A stretch of 64,000 nucleotides of DNA from an uncultured Desulfobacter sp. (GTDB lineage: Bacteria; Desulfobacterota; Desulfobacteria; Desulfobacterales; Desulfobacteraceae). Within the stretch, counting starts at the first letter, position 1; each line of letters starts with the position of its first letter. A program made the position numbers and the translations under genes. A model generated the notes under the pieces. It ran no database searches. It was not told the DNA's origin and was given only the letters and a program-made list of their open reading frames with translations. Of this stretch, positions 14,718 to 39,340 are shown piece by piece. The stretch spans positions 1,280,001-1,344,000 of the forward strand of contig OY762069.1 of the NCBI GenBank assembly GCA_963665095.1, read 5' to 3'.

Positions 14718-14774
14718 CGTTTATTATTTACCAGATTGTAAACTATACGGTAACCAACAAAAGGAGCTAAGAAC

Positions 14775-16363: not shown

Positions 16364-16404
16364 GGGTCCTTCCCAGGCTTTTCTTTTTGGGTCGGCGGAA
16401 CCCC
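16364..16404 (+). other. Candidate cos region
   Basis: GGGTCCT (the lambda cosQ sequence) followed by GC-rich GGGTCGGCGGAACCCC, just upstream of the terminase small subunit. Confidence 0.45.
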
Positions 16405-16444
16405 GATCTTTCACTTCATACCAGCTTTTTAGGGCTTCCCTACA

Positions 16445-18962: not shown

Positions 18963-18963
18963 C

Positions 18964-19209: not shown

Positions 19210-19210
19210 T

Positions 19211-22466: not shown

Positions 22467-22475
22467 GTCTTTTCA

Positions 22476-22501
22476 GGCGGGGCTTTTCATGCCCCGCTTT
22501 T
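22476..22501 (+). terminator. Intrinsic terminator after the capsid gene
   Basis: GGCGGGGC-loop-GCCCCGCT followed by a T run. Confidence 0.7.
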
Positions 22502-22530
22502 AACCAAAAGGTAAACTAAAAGGTAAAGTT

Positions 22531-22710
22531 ATGAAAATTAAAATCATAAGAGACTGTGCGATCTCAGTGGAAGAAAACGCCATAAAAGGTGATCTGCTGG
22601 ATGTCGAAAAACCGCTTGGCGTATCCCTGATTCAGTGCGGCGCGGCCGCAAAAGCCGAAGAGGAACCCGATGCCGAAGAAATCAAGGGAAAAGGCAAGGG
22701 CAAAAGATAG
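22531..22710 (+). CDS. Small head-associated protein (59 aa, not in ORF track)
   Basis: MKIKIIRDC...KGKGKR fills the gap between capsid and adaptor genes. Confidence 0.6.
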   Translation: MKIKIIRDCAISVEENAIKGDLLDVEKPLGVSLIQCGAAAKAEEEPDAEEIKGKGKGKR

Positions 22711-22713
22711 CGC

Positions 22714-23043
22714 ATGGTGACCCTACAGGAACAATTTGCAGACGATCTTGACCGGGCTTTTTATAACAGCGGGATTTTTGCTGAAACCATCCAATGGGAC
22801 AATGTAAGTATCTTGGCCATGGTATCGGATCCGGAAGAAATGCCGGGGGATATTGAAGCGAAAATTATTAGGAAAACCGTGGCGGTACAGAAAAAGGATA
22901 TTTCCGTACCGCCACGGGTTGATGATCAGGTCCTTTTAAAACTGGATGCATTCACGGTTGACGGTGGGGAGTATTGGACCGTCGGCAGCGTGAAAAACCT
23001 TTGGCATGAATGGGAAGTTTCTTTTTATAGGTTTACAGCGTGA
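22714..23043 (+). CDS. Head-tail adaptor (FII-like)
   Basis: Size, position and QFADDLDRAFYN..FAE start. Confidence 0.65.
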   Translation: MVTLQEQFADDLDRAFYNSGIFAETIQWDNVSILAMVSDPEEMPGDIEAKIIRKTVAVQKKDISVPPRVDDQVLLKLDAFTVDGGEYWTVGSVKNLWHEWEVSFYRFTA

Positions 23044-23633
23044 ATATAAATTTTTCAGGCGATGTTGCGGAACAGGCGGCCCAGGTCATTTCGACAATGG
23101 GGAGTCATGGGAAAATGGCCGTTGCCAGGTCTTTAAACCGGACAACCCAGGGGGTTAAGACTGATTCTGCCCGCGTGGTCCGTGATCGTTACAGTATAAA
23201 GGCCAGGGTTGTAACTAAGACCTTTTCCGTTGATCAGCGGGCCAAGTCGAACACCCTGACAGCATCCACAAAATCAACCGGCAGCCGCGCCCCATTAATT
23301 GCTTTTGGTGCCAGGCCCGCCCGGCCCGGTGGAAGGAAACCCACTAAAGGGGTTTCCGTTAAGGTTCGGAATAGCCGGAAAACGATTGATGGTTCATTTG
23401 TTGCCAGAATGAAAAACGGCAAGCTTGGAATTTTCCGTAGGTCCGGAGAATTCGGCAGGAATCAGGACAGTCACCTGGAGCGTATCCAAGAAATAAAAAC
23501 CCTGGCCGTACCCCAGGCCATTAAATGGCAGGAAGGGGCACAAGGGAAAATTGCAAGCCTTGCAGCTGCCAGATTTGAAAAGCGCCTTGGCCACGAAGTG
23601 GGTAGGGTTTTGGAAAAAATGGGGGCCAGATAA
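23040..23633 (+). CDS. Minor tail protein Z-like
   Basis: Basic protein with ARSLNRT, FVARMKNG and GIFRR. Confidence 0.75.
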   Translation: MNINFSGDVAEQAAQVISTMGSHGKMAVARSLNRTTQGVKTDSARVVRDRYSIKARVVTKTFSVDQRAKSNTLTASTKSTGSRAPLIAFGARPARPGGRKPTKGVSVKVRNSRKTIDGSFVARMKNGKLGIFRRSGEFGRNQDSHLERIQEIKTLAVPQAIKWQEGAQGKIASLAAARFEKRLGHEVGRVLEKMGAR

Positions 23634-24157
23634 TGAGCTTTGAATTAATCAAAACGATTAATGGTTTAATTGCAACCGGCACGCGGGATTTTTACTTGCG
23701 GCAGCCTGAAAAGCGGCCCGGGGAATATGTTCAGCCAAACCTTTATATTGGCGCGGTGCCGCCAAAGCGGAAAGGAAATATCCCGGGGCATGATGATAAC
23801 TCTATTTTTCCCTTTGTTGTAAACCGGTTGGTGTCAGGGATTGATGATTATGAATTGTCAACCCTTAACGTACATACGGTTTGCGGCATTTACACCGGTG
23901 AAGGCGTGGAAGCTGGAGAACATGACGTTATAAATCTTGTGATGCGCATAAAACGCCTTTTGACTGAGGTACACATATTAGAAGAGCGTTTTACCCGGAT
24001 TCCTCCCCTTGAATGGAATCTTGGAGATCCGGAAGATAAGTATTTACAGGCGTTCCCATATTTTGGTGGGGTGGTGAAAACAACCTGGACAGCCCCCACC
24101 TATGAACCAATTTTAACAGCACAGGAGGCAGCGAAAGTTTATGGCGAAATCGAGTAA
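23633..24157 (+). CDS. Tail completion/terminator-like protein
   Basis: Position before the sheath; FPFVV and PYFGG. Confidence 0.55.
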   Translation: MSFELIKTINGLIATGTRDFYLRQPEKRPGEYVQPNLYIGAVPPKRKGNIPGHDDNSIFPFVVNRLVSGIDDYELSTLNVHTVCGIYTGEGVEAGEHDVINLVMRIKRLLTEVHILEERFTRIPPLEWNLGDPEDKYLQAFPYFGGVVKTTWTAPTYEPILTAQEAAKVYGEIE

Positions 24158-24410
24158 AACACCCGCAAAAGAAACGCCTGACACGGTTATCTATGTGGGG
24201 CCGAATCTCAGTGGTGACATTCTTATTTCACAGTTTACGGTTTTTAAAAACGGTTTGCCGCCCTACCTTGCGGAACGCACCGGGGCCGATCCTGTTTTTA
24301 AAAGTCTTTTTGTGCCCTTGCCAGGTTTAACGGTTGCCAGGGCAGACTTGAAAAACCCAGGGTCAAGGATGGCAAGGGCATTTAATACAGTAAGGAAGGG
24401 GGCTAAATAA
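24141..24410 (+). CDS. Phage hypothetical protein
   Basis: IYVGP small ORF translationally coupled to the sheath gene. Confidence 0.65.
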   Translation: MAKSSKTPAKETPDTVIYVGPNLSGDILISQFTVFKNGLPPYLAERTGADPVFKSLFVPLPGLTVARADLKNPGSRMARAFNTVRKGAK

Positions 24411-25840
24411 TGACGTATAAACATGGTGTTTACGTTCTTGAACAAGCAACGAGCATCTTACCGCCGGTTCGGGTGGAATCCGGCTTGCCGGTGGTTTTTG
24501 GAACCGCCCCAGTTCATCTTGTGGATAACGGGCCGGTAAATGAACCTATCCTTTGTTATTCATATTCTGAGGCGGTTATGGGTTTGGGTTATTCTTCCGA
24601 TTTTGCAAAATACACCCTTTGTGAATTCATGTCGGCAGCCTTCGCCCTGTTTGGGGTGGCCCCGGTCGTTTTTGTCAATGTATTTGACCCTGACACCCAT
24701 AAAACAGCCATCGACGAAGAAACAGTAACCCTTGTGAGCGGGAAGGCAAAACTTGCCAATGGTGATATTGTGGACATTCCGGTGGTGAAAAATTCTGTAG
24801 GGGATAAAACGTTTGTCCTTGATACTGATTTCACTTTGGACCGGGCAACCGGCGATATTGAGCGAATTGAAACCGGATCTATGGCGGCAGCTGAAGAATT
24901 GAAAGTTGCTTATGATAAGGCGAATCCTGGGGCCGTGACCGGCACTGATATCATTGGCGGTGTTGACGGTTCTACGGGGGCCTATACTGGTCTTGAACAT
25001 TTGAATTCAATTTTCCCCAAATTCCGCCTTGTGCCAGGCCAGGTAGTTGCCCCGGGTTGGTCTCATGATTCAGGTGTTGCTGCTGTTATGCACGCCAAGG
25101 CCGGTAACATTAACGGACATTTCAAGGCCGTGGCCGTGGTGGATATTGATTCTGATACCGTTACCAAATATACAGACGTGGCGGCCACGAAAAACACCAA
25201 CAACTTAACCGATGAACAGTTGATTGTCTGTTGGCCAAAAGTTTCCCTTGGCGATGTTGAATACTGGCTATCCTCACAGGTAGCGGCCCTGAATTGCCTT
25301 GTTGATTCCGATAACGGCGACATTCCGTATACCTCCCCATCAAATAAGAATTTGCAAATGGATAAGGCAATAGCCAATGGTGTGGCTATTGAACTTGGTC
25401 CAGACCAGGCCGGATATTTGAACGGTCAGGGCATTGTCACAGCCTTAAATTTTATCGGTGGCTGGAAATGTTGGGGGAACAGAACGGGGTGTTACCCTGG
25501 TGTAACCGATGTGAAAGACGCTTTTATCCCCATCCGGAGAATGTTTAATTGGACCGCCAATACTATTATTTTGACATATTGGCAAAAGGTTGACTTCCCA
25601 GTGAACCGGCGTTTGATAGAAACTATCATGGATTCGGTTAATATCTGGTTAAACGGATTGGCGGGGCGTCAATTTATACTTGGCGGCAGGGTAGAGTTAC
25701 TGGAAGATGAAAACCCTACCACAGACCTGATGGATGGCGTTATTAAATTCCACGTATATCTAACACCCCCCAGCCCTGCCCGGGAACTTGATTTTATACT
25801 GGAATATGACCCGGCATATCTTCAAACCCTTTTCGGCTAA
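24410..25840 (+). CDS. Contractile tail sheath (P2 FI-like)
   Basis: YKHGVYV start, SPSNK, WGNRT and FIPIRR motifs. Confidence 0.93.
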   Translation: MTYKHGVYVLEQATSILPPVRVESGLPVVFGTAPVHLVDNGPVNEPILCYSYSEAVMGLGYSSDFAKYTLCEFMSAAFALFGVAPVVFVNVFDPDTHKTAIDEETVTLVSGKAKLANGDIVDIPVVKNSVGDKTFVLDTDFTLDRATGDIERIETGSMAAAEELKVAYDKANPGAVTGTDIIGGVDGSTGAYTGLEHLNSIFPKFRLVPGQVVAPGWSHDSGVAAVMHAKAGNINGHFKAVAVVDIDSDTVTKYTDVAATKNTNNLTDEQLIVCWPKVSLGDVEYWLSSQVAALNCLVDSDNGDIPYTSPSNKNLQMDKAIANGVAIELGPDQAGYLNGQGIVTALNFIGGWKCWGNRTGCYPGVTDVKDAFIPIRRMFNWTANTIILTYWQKVDFPVNRRLIETIMDSVNIWLNGLAGRQFILGGRVELLEDENPTTDLMDGVIKFHVYLTPPSPARELDFILEYDPAYLQTLFG

Positions 25841-25905
25841 AGATTAATCTTGTGCGGGTGAGATCCCCGCACATTTTAAATTAATAAACAGGGAGCAATA
25901 AAATA

Positions 25906-26427
25906 ATGTCCAACAAGATTGCTGAAAAATTAATTAATTTCCGGGTTTATAATGAAGGCAATGACCTCTTGGGGGTTGCTGACGTTGAGCTACCCACTAT
26001 TGAATCCATGACGGAAACCATAAAGGGTGCCGGTATTGCCGGAGAAGTGGATAGCCCCACCCTTGGCCATTATCAATCTATGGGTATTACCCTTAATTGG
26101 AGGACGGCCAGCAAGGCTGCCGCAGAGTTAACCAAACCACAGGCACACCAGCTTGAATTAAGGGGTGCGGTCCAAGTATACGATGCTGCCGCCGGGAAGT
26201 ATGAAGTAACCCCACAAAAAATTGTTGTAAAGGCTGTCCCCAAAACATTGGCCCTTGGAAAGCTTGATGTGGGTGTGAAGCAAGGATCTTCAAACGCCTT
26301 TGAAATCACATATATCAAGATTTTCATTGACGGAACGGAAGTTTTTGAGCTGGATAAATTTAACTACATTTGCAGGGTGAAGGGTGAGGACTACTTAACC
26401 GACACCAGGAGGGCACTGGGTTTATAA
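25906..26427 (+). CDS. Tail tube (P2 FII-like)
   Basis: GAGIAGEVD and ELDKFNY..R.ALGL. Confidence 0.9.
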   Translation: MSNKIAEKLINFRVYNEGNDLLGVADVELPTIESMTETIKGAGIAGEVDSPTLGHYQSMGITLNWRTASKAAAELTKPQAHQLELRGAVQVYDAAAGKYEVTPQKIVVKAVPKTLALGKLDVGVKQGSSNAFEITYIKIFIDGTEVFELDKFNYICRVKGEDYLTDTRRALGL

Positions 26428-26428
26428 T

Positions 26429-26829
26429 ATGGAAAAATTTACGTTAAAATACCCCTTTGACTTTGAGGGAGAAAAGGTTGAAACCCTGGAACTTAAAGCG
26501 CGGCTGAAAGGGAATGACCTCTTAGCCGCTGAAGGTGAAATGAAAATTCATGGTATCGTTGATCCAACCGAAGCAGAACGAAACCTTTTCATGGCAGCCA
26601 GGGCGGTTTCCCAGCCGGTGGAAGTTGTTAAGGCAATGGACTTGGCTGATTATGTGAGCCTGGCCAATAAACTTCCAAGTTTTTTATAGACGGGGGCGCG
26701 TTAAGGCAAGTTGTTTTAACCCTTGCCCGCGCAAGCCATACCAGTGTTGCGTTTTGGTTAAATGAATCCCTTGACGATTTGGCGGGTTGGATGGATGCAG
26801 CCGTTGAAGCGTTCGGGGATTCGCCATAA
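26429..26829 (+). CDS. Tail assembly chaperone (26429..26689) with -1 frameshift extension to 26829
   Basis: T-TTT-TTA slippery site just before the stop; the -1 frame reads IDGGALRQVVLTLARASHTSVAFWLNESLDDLAGW..SP*. Confidence 0.75.
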
Positions 26830-26858
26830 ATGCCCCCGAAGATCAGGAGCGTGAAAAC

Positions 26859-29171
26859 ATGGCAGGAAATAAAAAGTTTGAAGTTGGTTTCAATCTATCG
26901 GCAGCCCTGACCCCCGCCTTTTCTGGCACCCTGGGAAAAGCATCAAAACAAATGTCAAGGTTTGGGGCCGTCATAAAGCAGGCGGAAACCGGGCAAAAAA
27001 GTATTAAACGATTCTCTGAGCTAAGGTACGGTTTGAACGAGACGAAAACCGCCCTTGTGGATGCCAGGGCAAAGGCGGCAGCCCTTAAAAAAGAGTTTGA
27101 CAATACAGCCAAACCCACTAAAAAGCTGTCCGCCCAGGTGGCAGCCGCCCATAAAAATGTCCATAGGCTGGAAACAAAGCTGAGATCCCAGCGCCGTGCC
27201 CTTGGGGCGGCGAAAGGCGGACTTGACCAGGCTGGTATCTCCACCCGAAATCTGGCCAAAGAAAACAGCCGCCTGGCTGCATCCATTGACAAGGCAAAGG
27301 CCGCACAAAACAGGCTTAACAGGGCCAGGGCAACAATGGCCGGTGCAAAGCCTAAAATGGGCAGCATGGGGGGCAAGGCCATGGCCGCCGGTGCGATTAC
27401 CGGCGCGGCCATGGCCGCCCCTATTTTTTCCACGGCTTCATTGAACCAGGAAATGTCACGGGTCCAGGCCCTTTCTGGTGCCACGCAGGCGGAATACAAT
27501 AAAATGCGGGCATTGGCTGGCAGCCTGGGAGAAACCACCAGCTTTACGGCAAAGCAGGCAGCCGAGGGCATGAGCTATTTGTCAATGGCCGGCTTTAAAG
27601 TCAATGAAACAATGGCGGCCATGCCGGGCGTTTTAAATGTTGCTAAGGCAGCCGGTGAAGACCTGGGCCTGACGGCGGATATTGCAAGTAATATCCTTTC
27701 AGGGTTTGGTATTAAGGCCACGGAAATGGGGCGCGTGGGTGATGTGCTGACCCAGACCTTTACAAGTTCAAATACGAACCTGGCGGACCTGGGGGAAACA
27801 ATGAAGACGGCGGCCCCTATGGCCAAAATTTTGGGGGTTTCCCTTGAAGAAACGGCGGCCATGGCTGGCCTACTTGCGAACGTCGGTATCAAGGGCAGCC
27901 TTGCCGGTACGGGCATACAGGCCACAATGTCCAGGCTTGCCGCGCCAAAAGGCCCTGGTGCTGACGCCATGGCAAGCCTGGGAGTGAATTCCAGGGATGA
28001 AATGGGGAACGCCCGGAATGTAATAGAGGTTTTAGGCGATCTATCCGAAGCCATGGAAGGCATGGGTACCGGTGAAAAAACTTCATATCTTAAAGATATT
28101 TTTGGCCAGGAGCATTTCAAAACGGCGGCAAGTTTGCTTGAAGTTGGAACGGTTGGGATAAGGAAATATCACAATGAGATTCAGCAGGCCCATAAGATTG
28201 GCAAGGCCTCCCAGGTTGCCAGAATCATGGATGATAACGAGATTGGACGCTGGCAGGGTTTTAAATCCGCAGTTGACGGCGCAGCCCGCGTCCTTGGGGA
28301 TGCCCTGGCCCCCGCTGTAAATTCCGTTTTGTCTGGTATGACGCGCGCTGTGCGCGGGGTCACGGCCTGGATGAAGGGACACAAAACCATTGCAAAGGTT
28401 GTTGCCTGGTCCGTGCCAATTATAGGCGGTCTTACCACGGCAGCCCTGGGCCTTGGCGCTGCCCTTGCTGGGATAAAGTTTGCCGTTGCCGGGCTGGCCG
28501 TTCTTGGGCCGGTGTTTGGCGGTATCAAGGCCGCCTTTGCCGGGCTGTCAGTTGTTGGCCCTATTATTGCCGGTGCCAAAGCGCTTTTTGCCGGGCTGGC
28601 CATTGTGACCGCTCCGATATCCGGAACAGTGCTTGCCATTGGTGCGGCTGTCGTTGGTGTGGGTGCCGCTGTTTATCAGGTTTATAAGCATTGGGACAAG
28701 CTGAAGGGGTGTATTGCTGAATTATGGGGAAATTTGACAAAGGCCATTGATAAAATGGCTGTCTTTTCAAAAATGGGCGGCTGGCTGAAAGATAAATTTT
28801 CTTTTTCAATTTTTGGTGATTCTAAAAATAAGGAAAAGGGCGGCAAGCCAGGAAAAACTTTTTCCAATATACCAAAGACAAACGGACAGATTTCTGATAA
28901 ATCCAAAAATGTAAACGATTTGGTAAATCAGTTAAAAAACAATACCGGAAACAATCAAGCTGAGATGCTTAAAAAGGCGGCCGGCCTTTCCCGGTCTGTT
29001 AAAGGGGCAGAGATAAACCAAACGGTTGCCCCGGTTATCAATATCGCTCCCGGTGTTGATGCCAAAGGAGTGAAAGCAGCAATCTCCCAAAGCATGACAG
29101 AAACAAAGGAGTCTATGAAAACAGCCCTTGAAAACGTTTTAGCCCAGGAACGGCGGCTTGCTTATGAGTGA
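26859..29171 (+). CDS. Tail tape measure protein
   Basis: 770-aa Ala/Gly-rich protein with TP901-type core (FTAKQAAEGM, GIKGSLAGT). Confidence 0.93.
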   Translation: MAGNKKFEVGFNLSAALTPAFSGTLGKASKQMSRFGAVIKQAETGQKSIKRFSELRYGLNETKTALVDARAKAAALKKEFDNTAKPTKKLSAQVAAAHKNVHRLETKLRSQRRALGAAKGGLDQAGISTRNLAKENSRLAASIDKAKAAQNRLNRARATMAGAKPKMGSMGGKAMAAGAITGAAMAAPIFSTASLNQEMSRVQALSGATQAEYNKMRALAGSLGETTSFTAKQAAEGMSYLSMAGFKVNETMAAMPGVLNVAKAAGEDLGLTADIASNILSGFGIKATEMGRVGDVLTQTFTSSNTNLADLGETMKTAAPMAKILGVSLEETAAMAGLLANVGIKGSLAGTGIQATMSRLAAPKGPGADAMASLGVNSRDEMGNARNVIEVLGDLSEAMEGMGTGEKTSYLKDIFGQEHFKTAASLLEVGTVGIRKYHNEIQQAHKIGKASQVARIMDDNEIGRWQGFKSAVDGAARVLGDALAPAVNSVLSGMTRAVRGVTAWMKGHKTIAKVVAWSVPIIGGLTTAALGLGAALAGIKFAVAGLAVLGPVFGGIKAAFAGLSVVGPIIAGAKALFAGLAIVTAPISGTVLAIGAAVVGVGAAVYQVYKHWDKLKGCIAELWGNLTKAIDKMAVFSKMGGWLKDKFSFSIFGDSKNKEKGGKPGKTFSNIPKTNGQISDKSKNVNDLVNQLKNNTGNNQAEMLKKAAGLSRSVKGAEINQTVAPVINIAPGVDAKGVKAAISQSMTETKESMKTALENVLAQERRLAYE

Positions 29172-29364
29172 GTACAAAACTGTTCAGGGTGACACCTTTG
29201 ATATTATCGCCCTTAAAATTTGGGGTGATGAAAAAAAAGCTTGCCACCTGTTAGGAGCAAACCCCGGCATTAAGAATCTTTTTTTTCTCAATGCCGGGGT
29301 GTCAATAATTATTCCAGAAATTGAAACCACGTCAATGGATCCGGTGCCGCCATGGCAAAGATAA
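29164..29364 (+). CDS. Tail protein X (LysM-like)
   Basis: YKTVQGDTFD..ANP..PPW. Confidence 0.85.
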   Translation: MSEYKTVQGDTFDIIALKIWGDEKKACHLLGANPGIKNLFFLNAGVSIIIPEIETTSMDPVPPWQR

Positions 29365-30365
29365 GACAGGCCTTTTTAGATTTGACATATGATGGGCGTG
29401 ATATCAGCCGGGATATTTCAGGATTTTTGATAGACTTTTCCTATACTGATTACATTGGCGGCAAGGCAGATGATTTGCAAATCACGGTTGAAAACCGGGC
29501 TGGGCTTTGGTCTGGATCCTGGTTTCCTGGTAAGGGTGCTATGCTAACCGCGTCAATCAAAAGCAGCTTGTGTGGCAAGGACTCTATTTTAAAATGTGGT
29601 GTTTTTGCCGTGGATGAAATCACAGCCCAAGGGCCGCCCGATACAGTTACTATAAAAGCCGTTTCCAGCTTAACCGCCAAGGCTTTTAAGCGTGTGAATA
29701 AATCCAGGCCCTGGCAAAGCATCACTTTAAAAACGATCATGAATGATATAGCGACGGAACACAGCCTTGGTGCTTTTTTCCAGGCAAGTGAAGACCCGCA
29801 ATATATCCGGCTTGATCAGAAAGAGGAATCAGACCTTGCCTTTTTAAACCGGATTTGCCGTGAAAATGATTTATCTTTAAAAGTATCAGACGAAAAAATC
29901 ATTATCTTTGAAGGCAAACAGCTTGAACAGGTGGCCCCGGTTCGAATCGTTGAAAAAGGTGTAAGCGATCTATCCAGATACACCTTGAAGTCAAAAACTT
30001 TTGATGTTTATCGGGCCTGTGAAATTACTTACATGGACCCGACTGAGAAGGCAGAGAAAACTTTCACCTTCACCCCGCCTGGTGCTCCTGATGTTGGCCA
30101 GGTTTTAAAATTAAACAGACGGGTGGAGAGTTTAGCCCAGGCTGAAAGGGTGGCCATGGGTAGCCTGAAGCGAAAAAACCAAGAGGAAATAACCGGAAAC
30201 TTTGATCTGATGGGAGATACTGTTCTATTGGCCGGCTTGACCCATGCCGTTAATGGCTTTGGTGCTTTTGATGGAAAGTATATCATTGATGAAGCCAGGC
30301 ACAGCAGTGACAAGGACGGCGGATATTCAACGGCAATTAAATCAAGGAAGGTTTTAGGGTGGTGA
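29352..30365 (+). CDS. Baseplate hub / late control D protein
   Basis: QKEESDLAFLNR motif. Confidence 0.88.
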   Translation: MAKIRQAFLDLTYDGRDISRDISGFLIDFSYTDYIGGKADDLQITVENRAGLWSGSWFPGKGAMLTASIKSSLCGKDSILKCGVFAVDEITAQGPPDTVTIKAVSSLTAKAFKRVNKSRPWQSITLKTIMNDIATEHSLGAFFQASEDPQYIRLDQKEESDLAFLNRICRENDLSLKVSDEKIIIFEGKQLEQVAPVRIVEKGVSDLSRYTLKSKTFDVYRACEITYMDPTEKAEKTFTFTPPGAPDVGQVLKLNRRVESLAQAERVAMGSLKRKNQEEITGNFDLMGDTVLLAGLTHAVNGFGAFDGKYIIDEARHSSDKDGGYSTAIKSRKVLGW

Positions 30366-30366
30366 T

Positions 30367-30825
30367 ATGATCCGGGATCTTGAAAAAAGAATTATGGCCC
30401 TTGAAACCAGGTTAAATCAAATGATCCGGATTGGAAAAGTTTCTACTATTGACCCTGCAGCGGGAACCGCCCGGGTAATCCTTCCTGATTCTGGCGGGGT
30501 CGTTTCCTATGATTTGCCTATCCTTTTCAAGAAAACACAGAATGATAAATATTATTCAATGCCGGATATCGGGGAGCAAGTTTTGTGTTTGTTCCTTCCC
30601 AACGGCCAGGAACAAGGCTTTATTATAGGCTCTTTTTTTTCCCAAATTGATTCCACGCCGGTAAACGATCCGGATAAAACGCATGTTAAGTTCAGGGACA
30701 ATACGAGCATGGAATATGACCGTAAAAAACATAGATTGACAGTTAATATAAAGGGGCGGGTCTTAGTGAATGCTACGGGGCCGATTGAAATAATCGGATC
30801 AACAATAGATTTGAACAGGGGATAA
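30367..30825 (+). CDS. Baseplate spike protein V
   Basis: IRIGKVS, PDIGEQVLCL and YDRKKH. Confidence 0.88.
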   Translation: MIRDLEKRIMALETRLNQMIRIGKVSTIDPAAGTARVILPDSGGVVSYDLPILFKKTQNDKYYSMPDIGEQVLCLFLPNGQEQGFIIGSFFSQIDSTPVNDPDKTHVKFRDNTSMEYDRKKHRLTVNIKGRVLVNATGPIEIIGSTIDLNRG

Positions 30826-31140
30826 ATGGCAGCGATCACACGTAACGGGGATCTTTCCATGGGCATATGTGCATGTTGTTGTCCGTCATGCCCCCATGGG
30901 TGGGTCAGTGTGCATGTGGGCGGTAGCTCTAATGTTCGGGCCAACAACATGGGTGTTATGAGGGATCAGGATATAGGCGTGTCAAATTGCCCGCATTGCC
31001 CTACATCGTTTGCCGTTACGGCATCCCGGACTGTTCGGGCCAATGGCCGGGGCGTGCACCGGTTAGGTGATGTGCATAATGTTGCTTGTGGCAGCGGCCT
31101 TGTTATTTCTGCTTCATCTAATATTTTTGCGGGGGTTTAA
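30826..31140 (+). CDS. PAAR-type spike tip protein
   Basis: TRNGD, SNVRAN and HRLGD repeats; Cys/His rich; follows gpV. Confidence 0.8.
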   Translation: MAAITRNGDLSMGICACCCPSCPHGWVSVHVGGSSNVRANNMGVMRDQDIGVSNCPHCPTSFAVTASRTVRANGRGVHRLGDVHNVACGSGLVISASSNIFAGV

Positions 31141-31142
31141 AC

Positions 31143-32039
31143 ATGTCTGAATTTGCCATAGAGGTGAATGAATCAAAGCTTGGATTTGCTGTTTTATGTA
31201 AGTGCCTTGATCTTCATCACATTGCTGTGACGTTGCGTGATCTCGGTTTAGCTGAATTTTTTCCAGATGTATCCATTCAATTTAAGGATGTTTGTTCGGT
31301 ACTTAGATTTGGCGTCAGCGCAAAAATTGCCTGGACCGGGCAGTCAATGACCAAGGCGGATTCTGTGCCGGATGACACCCGGGTACCGGCAACGGTAGAA
31401 ATCAATGACGCCCTTATCAGCTTGATGTATAACGCAGCCGTAGCAAAAGGCATCACTCTTTCTGAATCATATGTATTCACAGCAGTGGACGGCGAATACA
31501 TAGAAGCATCAAAAACATGGTCAGGCGCAGCAAAAATATATCTTGATATGATGTCTTTGGCTGATGAGCTTACCATGTTTAAAATTGTATTCGGTGATTT
31601 GTACTTGGGCACAGTAGATATTAATCGCAGTCCTGGGCAGGTGATCCCGTTCGCGAGTTGTCCGCTGCCACTGGCCCATACTGCAGTGGGTTTTTCTATT
31701 GCAAACTGGTCCGGGATAAAGGCGGCGGCTGGGGATTACATCAATAACCTAATGCGCTTACCTGCTCTGGATGTTTTCGCGTTGTCTCCTGGTGAACTAT
31801 CCACAAGTGTTTCAAGCATTACCGTTTCAGGCGTTGTTCACCCTTCAGACGCGACTTTAACTATTTTTGACTGTTCTGCAGGTGGGGCTATTATTGCCGT
31901 CATGGAAGCGGAAGGATCAAACGGGGTTCAGTTTGCATCCGGAACATGGTTGTCTGGCGCATCTGTCCGGGTGGTTGTGGCCACGGCATCCGCCCCGTCA
32001 TCAATCACTTTCACTGTATTGACTATGGCCGCTTTATGA
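31143..32039 (+). CDS. Hypothetical protein inside the baseplate module
   Basis: 298-aa ORF coupled to both neighbours; no recognised motif. Confidence 0.6.
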   Translation: MSEFAIEVNESKLGFAVLCKCLDLHHIAVTLRDLGLAEFFPDVSIQFKDVCSVLRFGVSAKIAWTGQSMTKADSVPDDTRVPATVEINDALISLMYNAAVAKGITLSESYVFTAVDGEYIEASKTWSGAAKIYLDMMSLADELTMFKIVFGDLYLGTVDINRSPGQVIPFASCPLPLAHTAVGFSIANWSGIKAAAGDYINNLMRLPALDVFALSPGELSTSVSSITVSGVVHPSDATLTIFDCSAGGAIIAVMEAEGSNGVQFASGTWLSGASVRVVVATASAPSSITFTVLTMAAL

Positions 32040-32419
32040 TTGGTACATTTGGAAATATTGCTTTCGAAACCAGCACGAAAAAGGTTTTAACTTTTGATGA
32101 GTTCGAAAGGGTGACCGCCGCTATTTTCGCAGAACACAAGGTTATTGATCAAAAGCCAAAGCTACAGCTTACCGGCCTTGCTTTGGACCAAATTACTTTT
32201 TCCATTTTCCTATCTGCATTCCTGGGCGTTGACCCTGCAGATGAAATCCAAAGTTTTAAAGAGATTGCGGCCAAGGGTGAGGCTAGAAAATTAATTATGG
32301 GCGGGCAAGTTGTTGGGGATTTTGTCCTTGTAAACATGACAGAAAAATGGAGCCATGTAAACGCCAGGGGTAAAGTGGTAACAGCCATGCTTAATATCAC
32401 CTTAAAGGAATATGTCTGA
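32036..32419 (+). CDS. P2 gpU-like tail protein
   Basis: MIGTFGNIAF and EH.VI..KP.LQ.TG. Confidence 0.85.
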   Translation: MIGTFGNIAFETSTKKVLTFDEFERVTAAIFAEHKVIDQKPKLQLTGLALDQITFSIFLSAFLGVDPADEIQSFKEIAAKGEARKLIMGGQVVGDFVLVNMTEKWSHVNARGKVVTAMLNITLKEYV

Positions 32420-32745
32420 TGGAATTAGATATAACCGCAACCATGGAGACAATAGAGATCGGCGCCACCGGGGCAACGGAAATTATCCAGAATGTAAAAA
32501 CCATTATTTCCACAATCCGTGGAACGGTGCCCCTTGATAGAACCTTCGGTATCAGTTGGGATTTTATTGATATGCCCGCCCCTGCATCCCGGGCTGCTTT
32601 TATCGCTGAAATTGTGGAGGAAGTTGAAAAGCAGGAGCCCCGCGTAAATGTGATAAGCGTTTCATGGGATGAAGATCAGGCCAAAGAAATGGACGGAAAA
32701 CCTACGCCAACGATTAAAATAAAAATCAAGGATGAATATTTATGA
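32419..32745 (+). CDS. Baseplate wedge gpW/gp25-like
   Basis: GTVPLDRTFG and EPRV. Confidence 0.85.
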   Translation: MELDITATMETIEIGATGATEIIQNVKTIISTIRGTVPLDRTFGISWDFIDMPAPASRAAFIAEIVEEVEKQEPRVNVISVSWDEDQAKEMDGKPTPTIKIKIKDEYL

Positions 32746-33848
32746 TTGCGGATATCAGTTTTTGTGAAACAGACACGGCCACGGTTGAACAGTCCATTAT
32801 AGATATTTACGAAGGCATAACGGGGGCAACATTATACCCGGGTGATCCGGTGCGGCTGTTTTTGGAATCCCTTGCAGCTGTCATAGGGCAACAAAGGGTC
32901 ATTATTGACCAGGCAGGAAAATCAAATTTGGTCAATTATGCAAGGGAAGCGTATCTTGATCATATTGGGGCTATGACTGATACCCCAAGGCTTGAGATGG
33001 CAAAGGCAATAGTGAAGGTCCGGTTTGTATTGTCTGGTGTGCTTGGTAGTGTAACCCCCATTGCAAAGGGCGTCAGGGTTTCACCGGACGGGAAAATATT
33101 CTTTGAAACTGTTGCGGCTGCAGAGATCCCGGCGGGGGAATCTTCTCTTGTGATTGATTGTCAATGTACGGAAGCCGGGGCGCTTGGAAACGGTTTTTTA
33201 CCCGGTCAAATAACCAAGCTGGTTGACCCTATTCCTTATGTTGCTAGCGTGATCAATACCACAGAAACAACCGGCGGCGCAGATTTGGAGACCGATGCCG
33301 CATATGTCGAAAGGATTATTCTTGCCCCTGAAAAATATTCTGTTGCCGGGCCTGATGGCGCCTATCAGTACTGGGCTAAAACAGCCAACCAAAATATAAT
33401 TGACATTGCCACCTTTTCCCCATCCCCTGGTGTGGTCAATGTTATCCCCCTGGCCCTGGGTGGAACCCTTCCGGATGATGAAATTTTAACCGCTGTTGGC
33501 AACCTTTTAAACAGGCGTGACAAGCGCCCATTGACAGATAGTATACAAGTCTTGCCACCCAATCAGATTAATTACGATATATCATTAACTTATTATATTG
33601 CAGTTTCTGATATTCCCTTGGTTGCCCAGATCCAAGCAAATGTTAACGCTGCAGTTGAAAACTTTAAGGCGTGGCAGAAATCTAAGCTTGGGCGGGATAT
33701 TAACCCCAGCGTTTTGACACAATACATAATGGGCGCCGGGGCAAAAAGAGTTTCGATTATTTCTCCTACTTATGCCGCCCTTGAACCTAATCAGGTGGCG
33801 AATGATGTAACTATGACTATTACCTATGGTGGGATCGAAGATGAGTAA
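32742..33848 (+). CDS. Baseplate J protein
   Basis: GGADLETD, SVAGPDGAY and RPLTD motifs. Confidence 0.92.
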   Translation: MIADISFCETDTATVEQSIIDIYEGITGATLYPGDPVRLFLESLAAVIGQQRVIIDQAGKSNLVNYAREAYLDHIGAMTDTPRLEMAKAIVKVRFVLSGVLGSVTPIAKGVRVSPDGKIFFETVAAAEIPAGESSLVIDCQCTEAGALGNGFLPGQITKLVDPIPYVASVINTTETTGGADLETDAAYVERIILAPEKYSVAGPDGAYQYWAKTANQNIIDIATFSPSPGVVNVIPLALGGTLPDDEILTAVGNLLNRRDKRPLTDSIQVLPPNQINYDISLTYYIAVSDIPLVAQIQANVNAAVENFKAWQKSKLGRDINPSVLTQYIMGAGAKRVSIISPTYAALEPNQVANDVTMTITYGGIEDE

Positions 33849-34485
33849 AAGTCTAAAAGAGATTAATTTTCTTGACCTGTTGCCGTCTTCAATTTCTGGT
33901 GACGAAAAAATGAAAGCGGCCGCGCTGGCGCTTAACGCAGAGCTTTCATATCTAAATGATAAGACGGATTTGATATTTCTTTGGTCAAGAATTGACACCA
34001 TAGAGGAGCCGCTCATATCTGCCCTTGCTTACCAGATGCATGTTGACTATTGGGACGATAATTTTTTATTTGATCAAAAAAGGGAAATTGTAAAAACGTC
34101 TATTGCCTGGCACCGGATCAAAGGCACCCGGGCGGCTGTTGATAAAATGCTTGCTTTTGTTATAGGCGGCGGGGTGGCGGAAGATTGGCACGAATATGGC
34201 GGAGAGCCCTTCTATTTTCGAATTGTCACCACGGAAAGCCTAGTCAATCAGGAAACTTTTGAAAAGAAATTAATCCCGGCAATCAATCGGGCAAAAAATA
34301 CCCGGTCATGGTTGGAAGAAATTATTGTTGATCGTGATATCTCCGGAGACCTTTTCTTTGGCCTTGGGATCGTTCAGAGAAAAAAAATCACAATTGGTTT
34401 TGCCCTCAACATTGCGCCCCAAGAGGATAGGTTTATTGGGTTAGCGTTGAGGATCGGCAAAAGAATAACAATTAACGCAGCATAA
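33841..34485 (+). CDS. Tail protein I (P2-like)
   Basis: LAYQMHVD, HRIKGT..AV and AKNTRSWL. Confidence 0.88.
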   Translation: MSKSLKEINFLDLLPSSISGDEKMKAAALALNAELSYLNDKTDLIFLWSRIDTIEEPLISALAYQMHVDYWDDNFLFDQKREIVKTSIAWHRIKGTRAAVDKMLAFVIGGGVAEDWHEYGGEPFYFRIVTTESLVNQETFEKKLIPAINRAKNTRSWLEEIIVDRDISGDLFFGLGIVQRKKITIGFALNIAPQEDRFIGLALRIGKRITINAA

Positions 34486-34496
34486 AGGAGTGTTTA

Positions 34497-35552
34497 ATGT
34501 CTGGTTTTTCTGCCAACTACTTAACGCTAAAGGGTATAGCGTTACAATCCAAGGCGCAAACCGGGGTACAATTACAATTCACCCGGATTGGCATCGGTGA
34601 CGGTGTTTTGCCCGATGGTCAGGCGTTGCGGGATTTGACAGCCCTGTTACATGAAAAAATATCAGTACCCATTCAGGAATTAGAGGTTGTTGGGAATGGG
34701 ACAAGTCGCCTAAATTTCCTTTTAACCAATAAGGACCGGACTGAAGGGGTCTTTATTCGGGAGATCGGAATTTTTGCGATGGACCCAGACGAGGGAGAAA
34801 TTCTATATGCCATAACATACGCTGGTGACAAATATGATTATCTCCCCCCGGATGGCGAAGCAACGGCCGTTTCCCAGGATGTTGATATTTATACTATCAT
34901 CGGGAATGCCCCGAATGTAACGGCGGTTTTTGCCCAGGTGGCAGCCATTGATGTGGATGTAAAACAGCATCTTGTTGAAGCGGCAACGGCAAACGGGCAG
35001 ACTGATTTTATTTTGCCATGGCCATATAACCCCCGCCGCCCCAACCTGGCGGTTTATCGGGATGGGGTCAAGCAGATTCGTGGTATCCATTGGGACCCAC
35101 CACCGGCGGAAGCGGAAGCGGAAACAAGCACAACGGTGATTTTTAAGGCACCCCTGGCAGGCCTGGTTGATGGCCTTGAATTCTTTTCCATCCCCGTGGC
35201 TGCTGGGACGCATAAGGTTGCAACGGTCTGGCATAAAGCGGCGGACTACACAATCACAAATGGAAACAACGGGCATGTTCTGACCAATCGTGATTGTACT
35301 ACTGCAATGATATTCACTCTGGATTCAATGATTTCCGTTGGGATGCGTGTCACGGTGGCCAAACTTGCGGCCTATGACGTAACCGTCCAGGCCCCGGCCG
35401 GGGAAAGCATCATTGATAGTATTGCCGGGGGTTATATTCAGAATATAGATGATTCCCAGGTGGGTGCCACGCTTAGCTTGATCAAAGTGAGTGACACGCT
35501 TTGGACAGTAGAGCGGGGTTTCGGAACATGGTCAACAAATAACGGGGAATAG
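34497..35552 (+). CDS. Tail fibre protein
   Basis: N-terminal LTLKG..IGIGDG..IREIGIFA..GEILYA baseplate-binding domain. Confidence 0.85.
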   Translation: MSGFSANYLTLKGIALQSKAQTGVQLQFTRIGIGDGVLPDGQALRDLTALLHEKISVPIQELEVVGNGTSRLNFLLTNKDRTEGVFIREIGIFAMDPDEGEILYAITYAGDKYDYLPPDGEATAVSQDVDIYTIIGNAPNVTAVFAQVAAIDVDVKQHLVEAATANGQTDFILPWPYNPRRPNLAVYRDGVKQIRGIHWDPPPAEAEAETSTTVIFKAPLAGLVDGLEFFSIPVAAGTHKVATVWHKAADYTITNGNNGHVLTNRDCTTAMIFTLDSMISVGMRVTVAKLAAYDVTVQAPAGESIIDSIAGGYIQNIDDSQVGATLSLIKVSDTLWTVERGFGTWSTNNGE

Positions 35553-35556
35553 AATT

Positions 35557-36339
35557 ATGAACGATTTTAATTTTGGGTATGCGGTTGAGGTTTCCACCCA
35601 TAAAAAAGTTGTAAAGTTTACTGCATCCGGGGTTTGGACGGTGCCAGCAGACGTGGAAGTTATTGAAGCTGTGATCGTTGGCGGAGGCGGCTCCGGTGGG
35701 TTTTGTTCGCAGTATGCCGGTGGAGGCGGAGGCGGTTGTATTCGCTGGCAGAAAATCCCTGTTGTTGGGCTATCATCCATTCCTGTGGTTGTAGGTGTCG
35801 GCGGCGCTGCATTAACCGCTGTGGGGGATGGCAACGATGGCGGGGACTCCTATGTATTAAGCGATATTTATTTAGCGCCTGGGGGCAAGGGCGGGAAATC
35901 ATATCAGGGTGCCAGTGCAGCGATCCAGGGTGGTTATGGCGGCGGTTTTTCTATAACCGATGTTGTGAACAATACTTATGGCGTGCTCACCACCACTTCG
36001 GGCGGGGCGATGGGTAATGAGGCAGCAACAGCATCCCCCGCAGTCAATGCTGGTATTATTAGATCCTTTGGCTGGGGGGCTTATTGCTCCGGCGGACAAG
36101 GAGGGCATGGATACAATTCTGCCGTCGGAGCTAACGGGGGCAGTAATCCCTTTGGTAATGGCGGGACTGGCCTGACAGATACGCAACGGCTTGGCGGCGG
36201 CGGCGCAAGCTTCGGCCCAGGGGGTGATTATGGTTCAGATGTCCCTGCCGGGTCAATCGGCGGCGGATCTGGTGCGGCCCATGCGCTACACGGCCCGTCT
36301 GGTCCAGGGGCCAATGGCGCTGTTTATATTTTTTATTAA
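35557..36339 (+). CDS. Glycine-rich tail fibre-associated protein
   Basis: FTASGVWTVP..VGGGGSGG..GGGGGG..GANGAVYI. Confidence 0.75.
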   Translation: MNDFNFGYAVEVSTHKKVVKFTASGVWTVPADVEVIEAVIVGGGGSGGFCSQYAGGGGGGCIRWQKIPVVGLSSIPVVVGVGGAALTAVGDGNDGGDSYVLSDIYLAPGGKGGKSYQGASAAIQGGYGGGFSITDVVNNTYGVLTTTSGGAMGNEAATASPAVNAGIIRSFGWGAYCSGGQGGHGYNSAVGANGGSNPFGNGGTGLTDTQRLGGGGASFGPGGDYGSDVPAGSIGGGSGAAHALHGPSGPGANGAVYIFY

Positions 36340-36354
36340 TTAGGAGGTGTCTCC

Positions 36355-36906
36355 ATGCAATACGCACAAATAAGAGCTGGTAAAGTTAATATTATTGAGG
36401 TTGCAGATGCAACCGCACTGGCTGCTTTGCGGGCAACGGGATTGACAATCATTGATATCTCAGGGCGTGACCCGCGCCCGGCAACCGGTTGGGGTTATGA
36501 TGCTGATGCATCCATTTTCTTGGCCCCGCAGGAGCAAACTCCTTGTGTTTGTCTCCATGTGGAAATATCTGGCGGAGATGGAGGGGACCCTCCCGGCATA
36601 AGTAATGACGGGGTGGACTCCCTTTCTGTTTCTGCAGTATTCCGGGCAACCGAAGATTCTAATTCAGACATCGTGGAAGACGTTAATATCACCCGCAGGA
36701 TCAATATTAGGGACGATAAAAATAATGTTGCCAATATCATCAAAATTTCTTTTGCTGCTGGTATTTGCAACTTCTCTTATGCCACGGCCAGGGCTGCAGG
36801 GCTTTTCCATATCGCCCAGGCGGATTTTACCGAGAAAATTAATGGTGTGTCTATTAAGCTTATAGGAGACACACAATTTAAAGTGTATGAAGATTATACA
36901 AGCTAA
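36355..36906 (+). CDS. Tail fibre accessory/assembly-like protein
   Basis: YAQIRAGKVNII..GWGYD..F.AP; GGAGG RBS. Confidence 0.55.
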   Translation: MQYAQIRAGKVNIIEVADATALAALRATGLTIIDISGRDPRPATGWGYDADASIFLAPQEQTPCVCLHVEISGGDGGDPPGISNDGVDSLSVSAVFRATEDSNSDIVEDVNITRRINIRDDKNNVANIIKISFAAGICNFSYATARAAGLFHIAQADFTEKINGVSIKLIGDTQFKVYEDYTS

Positions 36907-36915
36907 AGGGGGGGC

Positions 36916-37173
36916 ATGCCAAAAAGCCTGGCTGAATTAAAAGATAATGCCCTTGCCTGGACGCTTGTTTTTATCATGTCCAGCTTTGCGGCGGTATTGG
37001 CATATCAAAATAACCGGATAGCCGCCCTTTATGACAAAAACGCTGCCTTGTCTGGAGAATTTGTCCGCCTTGAACGGTATCAGGCAGACCGGATAACAAC
37101 CCGGGACGTATTACGGCGAATAGAGGCAAATATAGATAAGCTCATAATAATGATGGTGGATAAAAGGGGTTAA
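36916..37173 (+). CDS. Small single-TM membrane protein (holin-like)
   Basis: One hydrophobic helix plus a coiled coil, located after the tail genes. Confidence 0.5.
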   Translation: MPKSLAELKDNALAWTLVFIMSSFAAVLAYQNNRIAALYDKNAALSGEFVRLERYQADRITTRDVLRRIEANIDKLIIMMVDKRG

Positions 37174-37174
37174 A

Positions 37175-37546
37175 TTGATTGAGACACAGGTAACCACGCC
37201 GGTAAAATATGAAGACCTTACGCCAGCGATAAAGCAGAGAATTTGTAACGGATGCGGCGGAAAGGGCGGAATCGTGAAACCACCGCATAGAATATTCTTT
37301 GAATCGTCATGCAATCACCATGATTATGGGTATTTCAAGGGGTGTACGGAACAAGACCGGAAAGCGGCGGACCTTGGCCTTTACCGTGCCATGGTTAACG
37401 ATTGCGCGGGTCTTCCCTGGTATCAAAAAGTCAGATATCGCCCATGGTGCTGGCTGTATTATATGGGTGTTCGTGTTGCAGGAAGAAAATTTTTTTATTA
37501 TGGAAATACCAAAAAGTTTCCAAAAATGGAAAAAGGAGAGTGTTGA
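37175..37546 (+). CDS. Phage protein with CxxHDxxY motif (phospholipase A2-like/DUF1353-like)
   Basis: CNGCG, CNHHDYGY, RKAAD and Y.GVR..G. Confidence 0.6.
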   Translation: MIETQVTTPVKYEDLTPAIKQRICNGCGGKGGIVKPPHRIFFESSCNHHDYGYFKGCTEQDRKAADLGLYRAMVNDCAGLPWYQKVRYRPWCWLYYMGVRVAGRKFFYYGNTKKFPKMEKGEC

Positions 37547-37549
37547 AAA

Positions 37550-37936
37550 ATGGAAAAAAGGTTTTGTTTTTTTCTGATTGTGATTTTGTTTAGCTTTGTG
37601 GCCTTGTTTGGCTGTAAAACAGATGAAGTCTTGAGGTCAGCGAATGCAATTTATCTTGACATCAAAACGGTAGTAACCGCCCCGGGTGTACGGGAAAAGA
37701 TCCCCCCGGTTGTGATGGTCAGACTTGCACAGCTTGAGCTTATTTACTTGAGTGCCGCCCAGGATATTAAGGCCACAGGGGTGGAGAACTCCCGCCCCAT
37801 TACCGTGGTGGTGGATTGCGCTGATGAATTTTTACAAATAATTAATACCATGGCGCTGAATGGAAAATATGAAAAGGAGATTAAAGCCATTGGAATAGCC
37901 ATTGACGTTTTGAAAAATCATATTCAGCGTGAATGA
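37550..37936 (+). CDS. Lipoprotein
   Basis: Signal peptide with LFGC lipobox. Confidence 0.7.
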   Translation: MEKRFCFFLIVILFSFVALFGCKTDEVLRSANAIYLDIKTVVTAPGVREKIPPVVMVRLAQLELIYLSAAQDIKATGVENSRPITVVVDCADEFLQIINTMALNGKYEKEIKAIGIAIDVLKNHIQRE

Positions 37937-37965
37937 GCAGATAAAGCATAAAAACGAATTAAGCA

Positions 37966-37997
37966 GGCCCCCTGGATTTTATCTTGGGGGCTTTTTT
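37966..37997 (+). terminator. Late operon intrinsic terminator
   Basis: GGCCCCC-loop-GGGGGCT followed by a T run. Confidence 0.7.
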
Positions 37998-38051
37998 GTT
38001 TTTTTAAATTATGTTAGTCATACCGATCCATATATCAACCAAGGGGGTGTT

Positions 38052-38459
38052 ATGGTTCGAATTATTAAACTTGCTGGATTGGTGATTTTCGGTTTTATAG
38101 CGTTCTTTATCGTGGTTGGTACGATTGCCCTATTGACTGGCCCCAATACTTCAAATGACCATCAAAAAACAACCCAATCCAACAAAATAGAAGATAGTCA
38201 GGGCAAAGATGCTGTTATCATGAAGGGGTGCTTTTATTCCAAGGATTTAGATATAATAAAAAAATTTCATAACCTGCAAGAAATTGGTAGGGCCGAAGAA
38301 TCAGCCCTGAATGATATGATTAAAAGCGGTGATGTTGTGGAAGTGGTAAGCCCAAGGTTAGAAGTCAGAATAATTGATAGATCAAAGGCGCCATTTTTTA
38401 AATTTGACACAGGCTTTATTGAGGGGTGGGTACATGGCGGGTGTGTTGATGGATTTTAA
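38052..38459 (+). CDS. Membrane-anchored moron protein
   Basis: GGGGG RBS then MVRIIK with an N-terminal TM helix; lies after the terminator. Confidence 0.6.
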   Translation: MVRIIKLAGLVIFGFIAFFIVVGTIALLTGPNTSNDHQKTTQSNKIEDSQGKDAVIMKGCFYSKDLDIIKKFHNLQEIGRAEESALNDMIKSGDVVEVVSPRLEVRIIDRSKAPFFKFDTGFIEGWVHGGCVDGF

Positions 38460-38467
38460 TGATATAT

Positions 38468-38632
38468 TCACTCTGCATTTAACGGGTAGTTTTGTCTTAA
38501 AAGGGCAATTATATTTTCAATATTTTCCCCTGTCTGCTTAAGCGTTGGCGACAAATCTTTTTCATTAACTGCTTTTATCGTTGAATATGCCTCTAATAAT
38601 TCCAAGAAAAATTTTAATCTATCTTTTTTCAT
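38468..38632 (-). CDS. 54-aa hypothetical protein downstream of the C4-like RNA (not in ORF track)
   Basis: GAGGGGAG RBS; MKKDRLKFFLELLEAYSTIK...PLNAE*. Confidence 0.5.
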   Translation of the reverse strand: MKKDRLKFFLELLEAYSTIKAVNEKDLSPTLKQTGENIENIIALLRQNYPLNAE

Positions 38633-38685
38633 ATTGCGCTCTCCCCTCTTTATATAGAAATGTTTTTTGAACTTTAATATGACAA

Positions 38686-38762
38686 TGCGGGCCGCATCCA
38701 GGTTGACAGATCGGAAACCATAGGAAACCGACGGGCACAGAACCCCCCGAACACGGCCCGCA
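38686..38762 (-). ncRNA. C4-like antisense RNA
   Basis: 14-bp closing stem (its G-U pairs form only on the minus strand), two inner hairpins, and unpaired segments complementary to upstream 38777..38803. Confidence 0.6.
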
Positions 38763-38962
38763 ATAATGGACCGCGCTTATGGTTTTTCCGGCTGTCAACC
38801 CGGGACCGGAATTTTATCCGATCATCGGTTGTATGGCACATAAGAAATATGGAAGTCAAGAATATAAAAACATCAAAAGACGGAGAATTTATTCCCTGTT
38901 ATATCAATATTTGTTAGTCCAGCGCCTTTTTTTACCATGTGGGAGACGTTTGATTTTTAAAA

Positions 38963-38985
38963 AAAGTTTATCAGAGGTTTATCAA
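38963..38985 (+). repeat. Putative integrase arm-type sites (right arm)
   Basis: AAAGTTTATCAGAGGTTTATCAA; same motif and 11-bp period as 1316..1339. Confidence 0.55.
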
Positions 38986-38988
38986 GGG

Positions 38989-39017
38989 TTGACACCCGGG
39001 CTGAAAAGCCTTAATCT
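38989..39017 (+). promoter_or_regulatory. Phage-encoded replacement promoter for the riboswitch-ribB leader
   Basis: TTGACA (38989-38994), 17-bp spacer, TAATCT (39012-39017). Confidence 0.6.
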
Positions 39018-39029
39018 GCCCGGGTTTTT

Positions 39030-39056
39030 GTTCTCAGGGCGGGGTGAAATTCCCCA
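39030..39056 (+). repeat. attR core
   Basis: Identical to 1232..1258. Confidence 0.95.
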
Positions 39057-39186
39057 CCGGCGGTAACCTGAACACCATGGCGCAAGCCATCAGGAAAGCC
39101 CGCGAGCGCTCTGCTTTTGATACAGAGGTCAGCAGATCCGGTGAAACTCCGGAGCCGACGGTGACAGTCCGGATGGAAGAGAATAA
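39030..39186 (+). ncRNA. FMN riboswitch (RFN element)
   Basis: AGGGCGGGGTGAAATTCCCCACCGGCGGT..AGCCCGCGAGCG..GTCAGCAGATCCGGTGAAACTCCGGAGCCGACGGT..AGTCCGGATGGAAGAGAA, upstream of ribB. Confidence 0.97.
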
Positions 39187-39340
39187 GCACGGAAACTGTC
39201 TGCCATTGCAGCTGCATCCGGACGGATTTTTATAATACATAAAAAAACCTCCGGACAGTGATGATGACTATTGTTTTTTGCCTGTTTCGTTTTCCACGCC
39301 CTGATTCATGTATTAATTTATTATTTAAAGGAGTTGAATC

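Follow-up and report, generated by a model that had tools for sequence, protein, structure and literature searches.

A prophage inside the FMN riboswitch of ribB in a Desulfobacter genome, and the likely promoter at its right end

How might a riboswitch-controlled gene stay in use when a prophage is integrated within the riboswitch itself? The question is raised by a 64,000-nucleotide stretch of the genome of an uncultured Desulfobacter sp. (the whole stretch is called the window below, and the genome G000), where the 27-bp repeat found at both ends of a prophage forms the 5′ end of the FMN riboswitch that precedes ribB (Table 1). Our preferred reading, to which we give a probability of about 0.78 on the basis of sequence comparison, is that a phage-supplied 5′ leader and a likely promoter restore FMN-regulated ribB, a spare gene copy. 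The prophage lodges inside the riboswitch, where its integrase probably cuts at the tRNA-like T-loop of the ribB FMN switch; the right end of the prophage brings the front of the switch and a likely replacement promoter, from which ribB would be transcribed under FMN regulation. As the T-loop comes early in the leader, close to its 5′ end, what the phage must resupply is the upstream part and not a 3′ end. The 5′ part does come from the element; for a promoter at the locus, the evidence is one of conservation.

Table 1. Features of the window that bear on the insertion (positions within the window)
Feature	Position	Strand	Remarks
Displaced host promoter-like site	1196..1224	+	TTGACA-17-TAGGAT; upstream of attL core
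attL copy of 27-bp identity block	1232..1258	+	5′ fragment of FMN riboswitch
Prophage, 37.8 kb	1259..39029	.	terminase, portal, capsid, contractile-tail and baseplate genes on + strand
IHF-like site, integrase-side arm	1284..1296	+	7/9 to consensus; suggestive only
Tyrosine integrase, open frame, 456 aa	1290..2660	-	phrog_1, E 6.5e-12
Tandem arm-type repeats GTTTATCA, two, 11-nt period	1320..1338	+	within 3′ end of integrase gene
C4 antisense RNA match	38681..38767	-	48 bits, gathering score 45
Tandem arm-type repeats GTTTATCA, two	38966..38984	+	phage right end
Likely phage-supplied promoter	38989..39017	+	-35 TTGACA 38989-38994, 17-nt spacer, -10 TAATCT 39012-39017
GC hairpin and T-run, possible terminator	38994..39032	+	not conserved in related flanks
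Riboswitch 5′ part, putatively phage-supplied	39024..39044	+	flank, P1 5′ strand, TCAGGGCG, P2 5′ stem
FMN riboswitch aptamer (RF00050)	39026..39188	+	115.3 bits; sole FMN riboswitch in genome
attR identity block	39030..39056	+	P2 stem GGGG/CCCC around 7-nt T-loop TGAAATT
T-loop TGAAATT, putative crossover region	39045..39051	+	by comparison with relatives
Switch strand CGCCCTGATTCAT	39297..39309	+	complementary to core TCAGGGCG and TGAATCA/start-codon region
ribB, stand-alone DHBP synthase, second copy in genome	39341..39997	+	above TIGR00506 cut-off

The attachment site and its integrase

The 27-bp repeat is perfect and has just two copies in the 6.9-Mb genome. With a direct repeat at both ends, an adjacent integrase gene and arm-type repeats on both arms, the locus has the make-up of a phage attachment (att) site. 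An empty site with joined host flanks is found at the level of the genus: 15 of the 22 switch-bearing genomes have a native leader, and in 11 of these 15 it has the promoter register of attL (G000 being kept apart and G011 counted separately). A search of sequencing runs listed no RNA run with this DNA. One sequencing run, whose reads were checked at the attR side, matches the host side almost perfectly and leaves the phage side uncovered; it could come from an empty-site strain. There are no tRNA or tmRNA genes in the window, and the att site is thus in neither. The element works like the islands that target such genes, but at a T-loop mimic.

Related integrases were located at 30 loci, of which 27 adjoin the T-arm of a tmRNA or tRNA and two the P2 loop of an FMN switch, while one was left unassigned. 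The tRNAs concerned are, as we take them from their sequence, of the His and Pro types. A related integrase at L032 (G083) has adjacent DNA without tRNA, tmRNA or FMN core. The two integrases at FMN cores, those of G000 and G014, are 75% identical to each other. A tree of 28 integrases places both, together with four context-less entries, in a clade supported at 100/100; P0004 in this clade is identical to the G014 protein, the context-less P0007 branches next, and the nearest neighbours of known target use tmRNA. P0003, P0005, P0006 and P0007 show 71-83% identity. The cores of the relatives have a 7-nt loop (TTCAACT or TTCAATT) in a short stem, and the FMN core reads GGGG-TGAAATT-CCCC. Loop L2 of the FMN riboswitch is described as a T-loop with the consensus UGAAA-UU (10.1101/2022.12.26.521914). 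The integrase has likely switched from the T-arms of tRNA and tmRNA to a look-alike T-loop in a riboswitch, and by analogy with the relatives we infer a crossover within the 7-nt loop TGAAATT. In tmRNA the identity block is 3′ of the loop; here it extends 11 nt 5′ of the P2 stem. Owing to this 5′ direction, the front of the switch is what the phage restores, and a promoter is required as well.

Where relatives of the integrase have a named source, it is the Desulfobacteraceae. Viral contigs held neither a relative of the integrase nor a match to the core. Phage records gave no integrase match, and part of the riboswitch was matched only briefly, in six of them. A metagenome scan for arms plus core returned 14 matches, all of them chance matches and none running into a riboswitch. 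G000 carries a second element of ∼22.6 kb at tmRNA (G000:C1:2158346-2180956), with a 66% identical integrase and the same arm repeats, and cross-talk between the two G000 integrases is possible. At L029, L101, L102 and L112, elements are stacked at tmRNA, with a right-end-type flank immediately followed by another integrase.

Some further features of the prophage were recorded. A promoter-like site at 38839-38811 (-) is on the same strand as the C4 antisense RNA match. Six copies of a 26-nt repeat of the ATTTACCA..TAAAC type lie in intergenic regions of the prophage (at 8708, 8740, 11881, 14726, 16276 and 22499), with related copies at 2666 and 6390; they are candidate repressor operators. A perfect 58-nt direct repeat (10202-10259 and 11037-11094) flanks a C5 DNA methylase gene (10266-11048), a unit that looks like a small inserted cassette.

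A likely promoter at the right phage end

An earlier note on this DNA had proposed that TTGACA-17-TAATCT, just inside the phage end, mirrors the displaced host site TTGACA-17-TAGGAT and replaces it as a promoter. Both sites are there with their 17-nt spacers, but their registers differ and the phage -10 box is weak. The end of the -10 box is 7 nt from the core at the host site versus 12 nt at the phage site; the host register, with 22 nt from the -10 end to the P2 loop, is that of 12 of 18 native leaders. Transcription usually starts a few nt past the -10 box, so that from a host box this close to the core hardly any of the host flank CC would be transcribed. TAATCT matches TATAAT at 3/6 positions, and the phage site thus falls short, at its -10, of a sigma-70 definition that asks for at least 4/6 matches per hexamer and a spacer of 16-18 nt. 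A consensus promoter scan lists the host site and not the phage site. Native -10 boxes at the FMN switch are often equally weak (TAAGAC, TATCCT, TAGATC). With a promoter matrix trained on the 18 native FMN leaders, which are related and dominated by one clade, the phage site scores 12.4 and the displaced host site 17.4; a score of 12.4 was matched by 6 of 2000 shuffles of the phage flank. The pattern TTGAC(A/T)-17-TA occurs three times on the + strand of the prophage, with ∼0.003 expected in a segment of 34 nt. A TATAAT within the leader (39231-39236) is without a -35 box.

What supports a replacement promoter, despite the poor -10, is a comparison of seven phage-derived flanks. Our genus set comprised 25 genomes, 22 of which have an FMN switch: 15 are native, two have both att copies (G000 and G014) and five have a phage-type flank only (G006, G010, G012, G020 and G024, called scars below). 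The complete genome of G019 gave no FMN match. All seven phage-derived flanks have TTGAC at the -35 position and a TA-type box 16-17 nt further on, with matrix scores of 12.4, 15.3, 12.5, 15.3, 6.6, 4.0 and 9.0. As controls we used 20 right ends of tmRNA-inserted elements, that is, the non-tmRNA upstream flanks of T-arm copies; intact tmRNA rows, a foreign tmRNA (L108) and a truncated row (L126) were left out, and several of the control ends probably belong to more distant integrases. The controls score -3.3 to 7.2. Five of the seven phage-derived flanks lie above all of them, and two scar flanks (6.6 and 4.0) score inside the control range. The top control owes its 7.2 to arm repeats that read TTGACC.

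The scars are of phage origin, as shown by their arm repeats and by shared sequence. Tandem arm repeats occur in six of the seven phage-derived flanks (G012 has a single arm) and in none of 17 native flanks; no exact tandem 7-mer repeat turned up in another 21 native leaders, taken from across the wider family (L025 gave no row). The G010 flank has 22 bases identical to the left arm repeats of the G000 phage. In each scar, a phage end of ∼70-90 nt is joined to host-like DNA. Over the 1 to 20 kb examined upstream of the five scars there was no integrase match and no other likeness to the G000 phage (∼1 kb for G010), and neither a second core nor a host-type promoter pattern was found in the five genomes, three of which are drafts of 90-1180 contigs in which remnants could be missed. 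An extra core match in G012 was ruled out as a riboswitch fragment. The AAA gene that precedes attL here is ∼2.8 kb (G012) and ∼5 kb (G024) from the scar. The first ORF upstream of the scar is divergent in both G006 and G024, which makes read-through an unlikely reason for the phage end to have been retained. A c-di-GMP-I riboswitch lies ∼330 nt upstream of the G010 scar, facing away (L093 666-747, -).

Scar genomes interleave with native ones on a recA tree (four of the five; G011, being mis-oriented, was ignored, and G012, being partial, was left out) and on a ribB tree, where the five scars as a single clade are rejected (p-AU 1.8e-5). This points to repeated events or to transfer of the leader. 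A search of 401 genomes of the order for the broken-core pattern, in a set with two other genomes of the genus and without G014, found it in G000 only. The earlier note had overlooked both the likely switch of integrase target and a likely phage promoter kept where no phage is found, which we consider the more interesting points. To a fuller history we give slightly better than an even chance: a T-arm integrase jumped to the FMN T-loop, its layout of arm plus IHF site became a promoter that kept the gene on, this was domesticated more than once, and by now it drives ribB in roughly one quarter of the genus.

Alternative roles for the phage flank

The promoter is likely to have arisen from the layout of attP, since in relatives an IHF-like motif already follows an arm repeat at a distance of 17 nt; the controls show this arrangement to be ancestral. 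Recombination needs alone can explain part of the promoter match. It might even be that the promoter look is wholly a by-product of attP, made of a third arm repeat and an IHF site, and that ribB is silent or otherwise driven in the lysogen. The TTGACA of the phage end falls on the 11-nt period of the arm repeats; an IHF-like motif 41 nt before the loop (39004-39016) takes in part of the spacer and of the -10; in the controls the best IHF-like match is at 41 nt in 5 of 20 and at 31 nt in four more; and ribB is redundant. By score alone, against what we take to be the IHF consensus, phage ends equal host leaders (5-8/9), so that only the register of these motifs is suggestive. We nonetheless think this explanation, the chief rival to our reading, improbable. 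The scar -35 reads CTTGACTT in all five and is a poor match to the adjoining GTTTATCA arms, yet TTGAC is invariant in 6/6 aligned flanks of the G000 type. The G014 element differs in layout, with its arms 24 nt further out, and reaches the same promoter arrangement (TTGACT-17-TAACAC, resembling its displaced host TTGACT-17-TAAGAC). Moreover, the phage retains 11 bases of the riboswitch on the 5′ side of the P2 stem, for which recombination would have no use. A second possibility, which is compatible with restoration of ribB, is that the flank serves as an insulator, as the earlier note had held: a hairpin would stop late-direction phage transcripts before they reach ribB and, in the excised circle, the convergent integrase. 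A hairpin followed by Ts does exist. Its arms, ACCCGGGC (38994-39001) and GCCCGGGT (39018-39025), form 7-8 GC-rich pairs around a 16-nt loop region and are followed by TTTTTGTT (TTTTGTT directly after the second arm). On the + strand we found no other hairpin-plus-T-run locus in the interval that separates the last phage gene from the core (38460-39030), the late genes point toward the hairpin, and a transcript from ∼39024 would lack its 5′ arm, so that the promoter need not be blocked. Its stability of -17.1 kcal/mol was, however, at least equalled by 14 of 200 shuffles (z -1.54), and its loop is above the 3-8 nt of an intrinsic terminator, although stem and U-tract are present; a terminator scan with loops of 3-8 nt found no sites. 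For the six other phage-derived flanks the folding energies lie between -3.8 and -8.2 kcal/mol, so that the strong hairpin is a feature of one flank in seven, and by the same type of measure one control end folds more strongly (-18.4). The hairpin may terminate transcription in the G000 phage, outside the flank design that is shared; an insulator role seems doubtful to us, if less so than the by-product explanation.

The remaining alternative concerns the riboswitch. This has a covariance-model score of 115.3 versus a gathering threshold of 66.2 over the full model (1-138), and ribB, a riboflavin gene, lies downstream of it with an expression platform. TCAGGGCG pairs with the switch strand, whose motif GCCCTGATTC, complementary to TCAGGGCG, is kept in 20/20 leaders. 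As TCAGGGCG is inside the identity block, the switch pairing is the same with either flank, and we predict translational control downstream through the same pairing strands in both cases. The phage flank might nevertheless have been selected to alter promoter strength or switch stability and thereby to control the flavin supply of the host. As previously suggested, it pairs for at least 2 bp more than the host flank: P1 has 9 contiguous pairs (one G-U) versus 6. Folding shifts by 0.6-2.5 kcal/mol toward P1 in the lysogen leader, depending on the assumed start, and in the model P1 and the ON helix lie 3.7-4.3 kcal/mol apart with host starts and 1.8-3.1 kcal/mol apart with phage starts. The lower promoter score than that of the displaced host site would fit such retuning too, as would the precedent of HK022, whose prophage promoter alters host regulation (PMC6814406). 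The longer P1 is not conserved, however: among the seven phage-derived flanks P1 has 9 pairs in two, 7 in one and 6 in four, and native leaders range from 5 to 12. Modelled accessibility of the ribosome site, in ligand-free folding, is 0.37 in all five variants and in both forced states, so that the model gives no change of output.

Nor does the gene complement favour control of flavin supply. The other DHBP synthase of the genome is a 401-aa ribBA-like ORF beside genes that we take, from their sequence, to be RibD- and RibE-like, and this main rib cluster is without an FMN switch. The five scar genomes also carry a second copy of DHBP synthase. Phage control of flavin supply is thus unlikely, and the lysogenic control proposed earlier was overstated; we regard selected retuning as the least probable of the explanations considered, and on our reading the mechanism is one of host gene restoration. 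Selection to restore ribB may itself be mild, given that the gene is redundant with the ribBA-like gene and that G019 has no FMN match. The prophage carries ThyX and also a gene with a dATP/dGTP diphosphohydrolase domain (14775-15913); ThyX is a flavin-dependent thymidylate synthase, and the phage might conceivably require flavin from its host.

Precedents and significance

Tyrosine integrases that target the T-loop of tRNA and tmRNA genes, as Williams is said to have described in 2002, reportedly use a 7-nt loop within a short inverted repeat. The system here has the same family of enzyme, the same orientation of the integrase gene and, putatively, a 7-nt loop as core. What such elements restore is the RNA gene's 3′ end; in our case the identity block reaches in the 5′ direction and a promoter is required. 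The riboswitch at rcnR|thiM is, we presume, the TPP switch of thiM; the att site of the PICI EcCI224 would then lie in a riboswitch leader, as here, but in a different riboswitch, host phylum and type of element. EcCI224 is catalogued at rcnR|thiM in the supplement of PMC10111431, and the word 'riboswitch' has no match in the main text and in the supplement that we searched.

The dusA islands insert near the 5′ end of their target, replace its 5′ part and bring putative -10 and -35 boxes, by which the gene remains transcribable (PMC4482086). They resemble our prophage in the 5′ replacement and the putative promoter supply; they target a coding gene, whereas our prophage has a riboswitch leader as its target and an integrase of T-arm-targeting stock. 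In HK022 at torS/torT, a prophage promoter replaces that of the adjacent host gene (PMC6814406). This is the promoter replacement proposed here; HK022, though, demonstrably changes regulation, while our data support restoration only, at a site inside an RNA switch. Our literature searches turned up no case of an attachment site in an FMN riboswitch, nor one for thiM; large island catalogues may list the site unnamed. Neither the main text of PMC12884075 nor that of PMC13626063 has a match to 'riboswitch', and one supplement of the latter, probably incomplete, gave none either.

As ribB is a spare copy, the insertion has little meaning for flavin supply. Its interest is that it extends the target range of these integrases from RNA genes to the T-loop of a riboswitch, and that their specificity may jump to a look-alike, in structure and sequence, of the tRNA T-arm. 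It also offers a small, testable case of the birth of a promoter from recombination signals, in which phage DNA would become a lasting promoter of the host.
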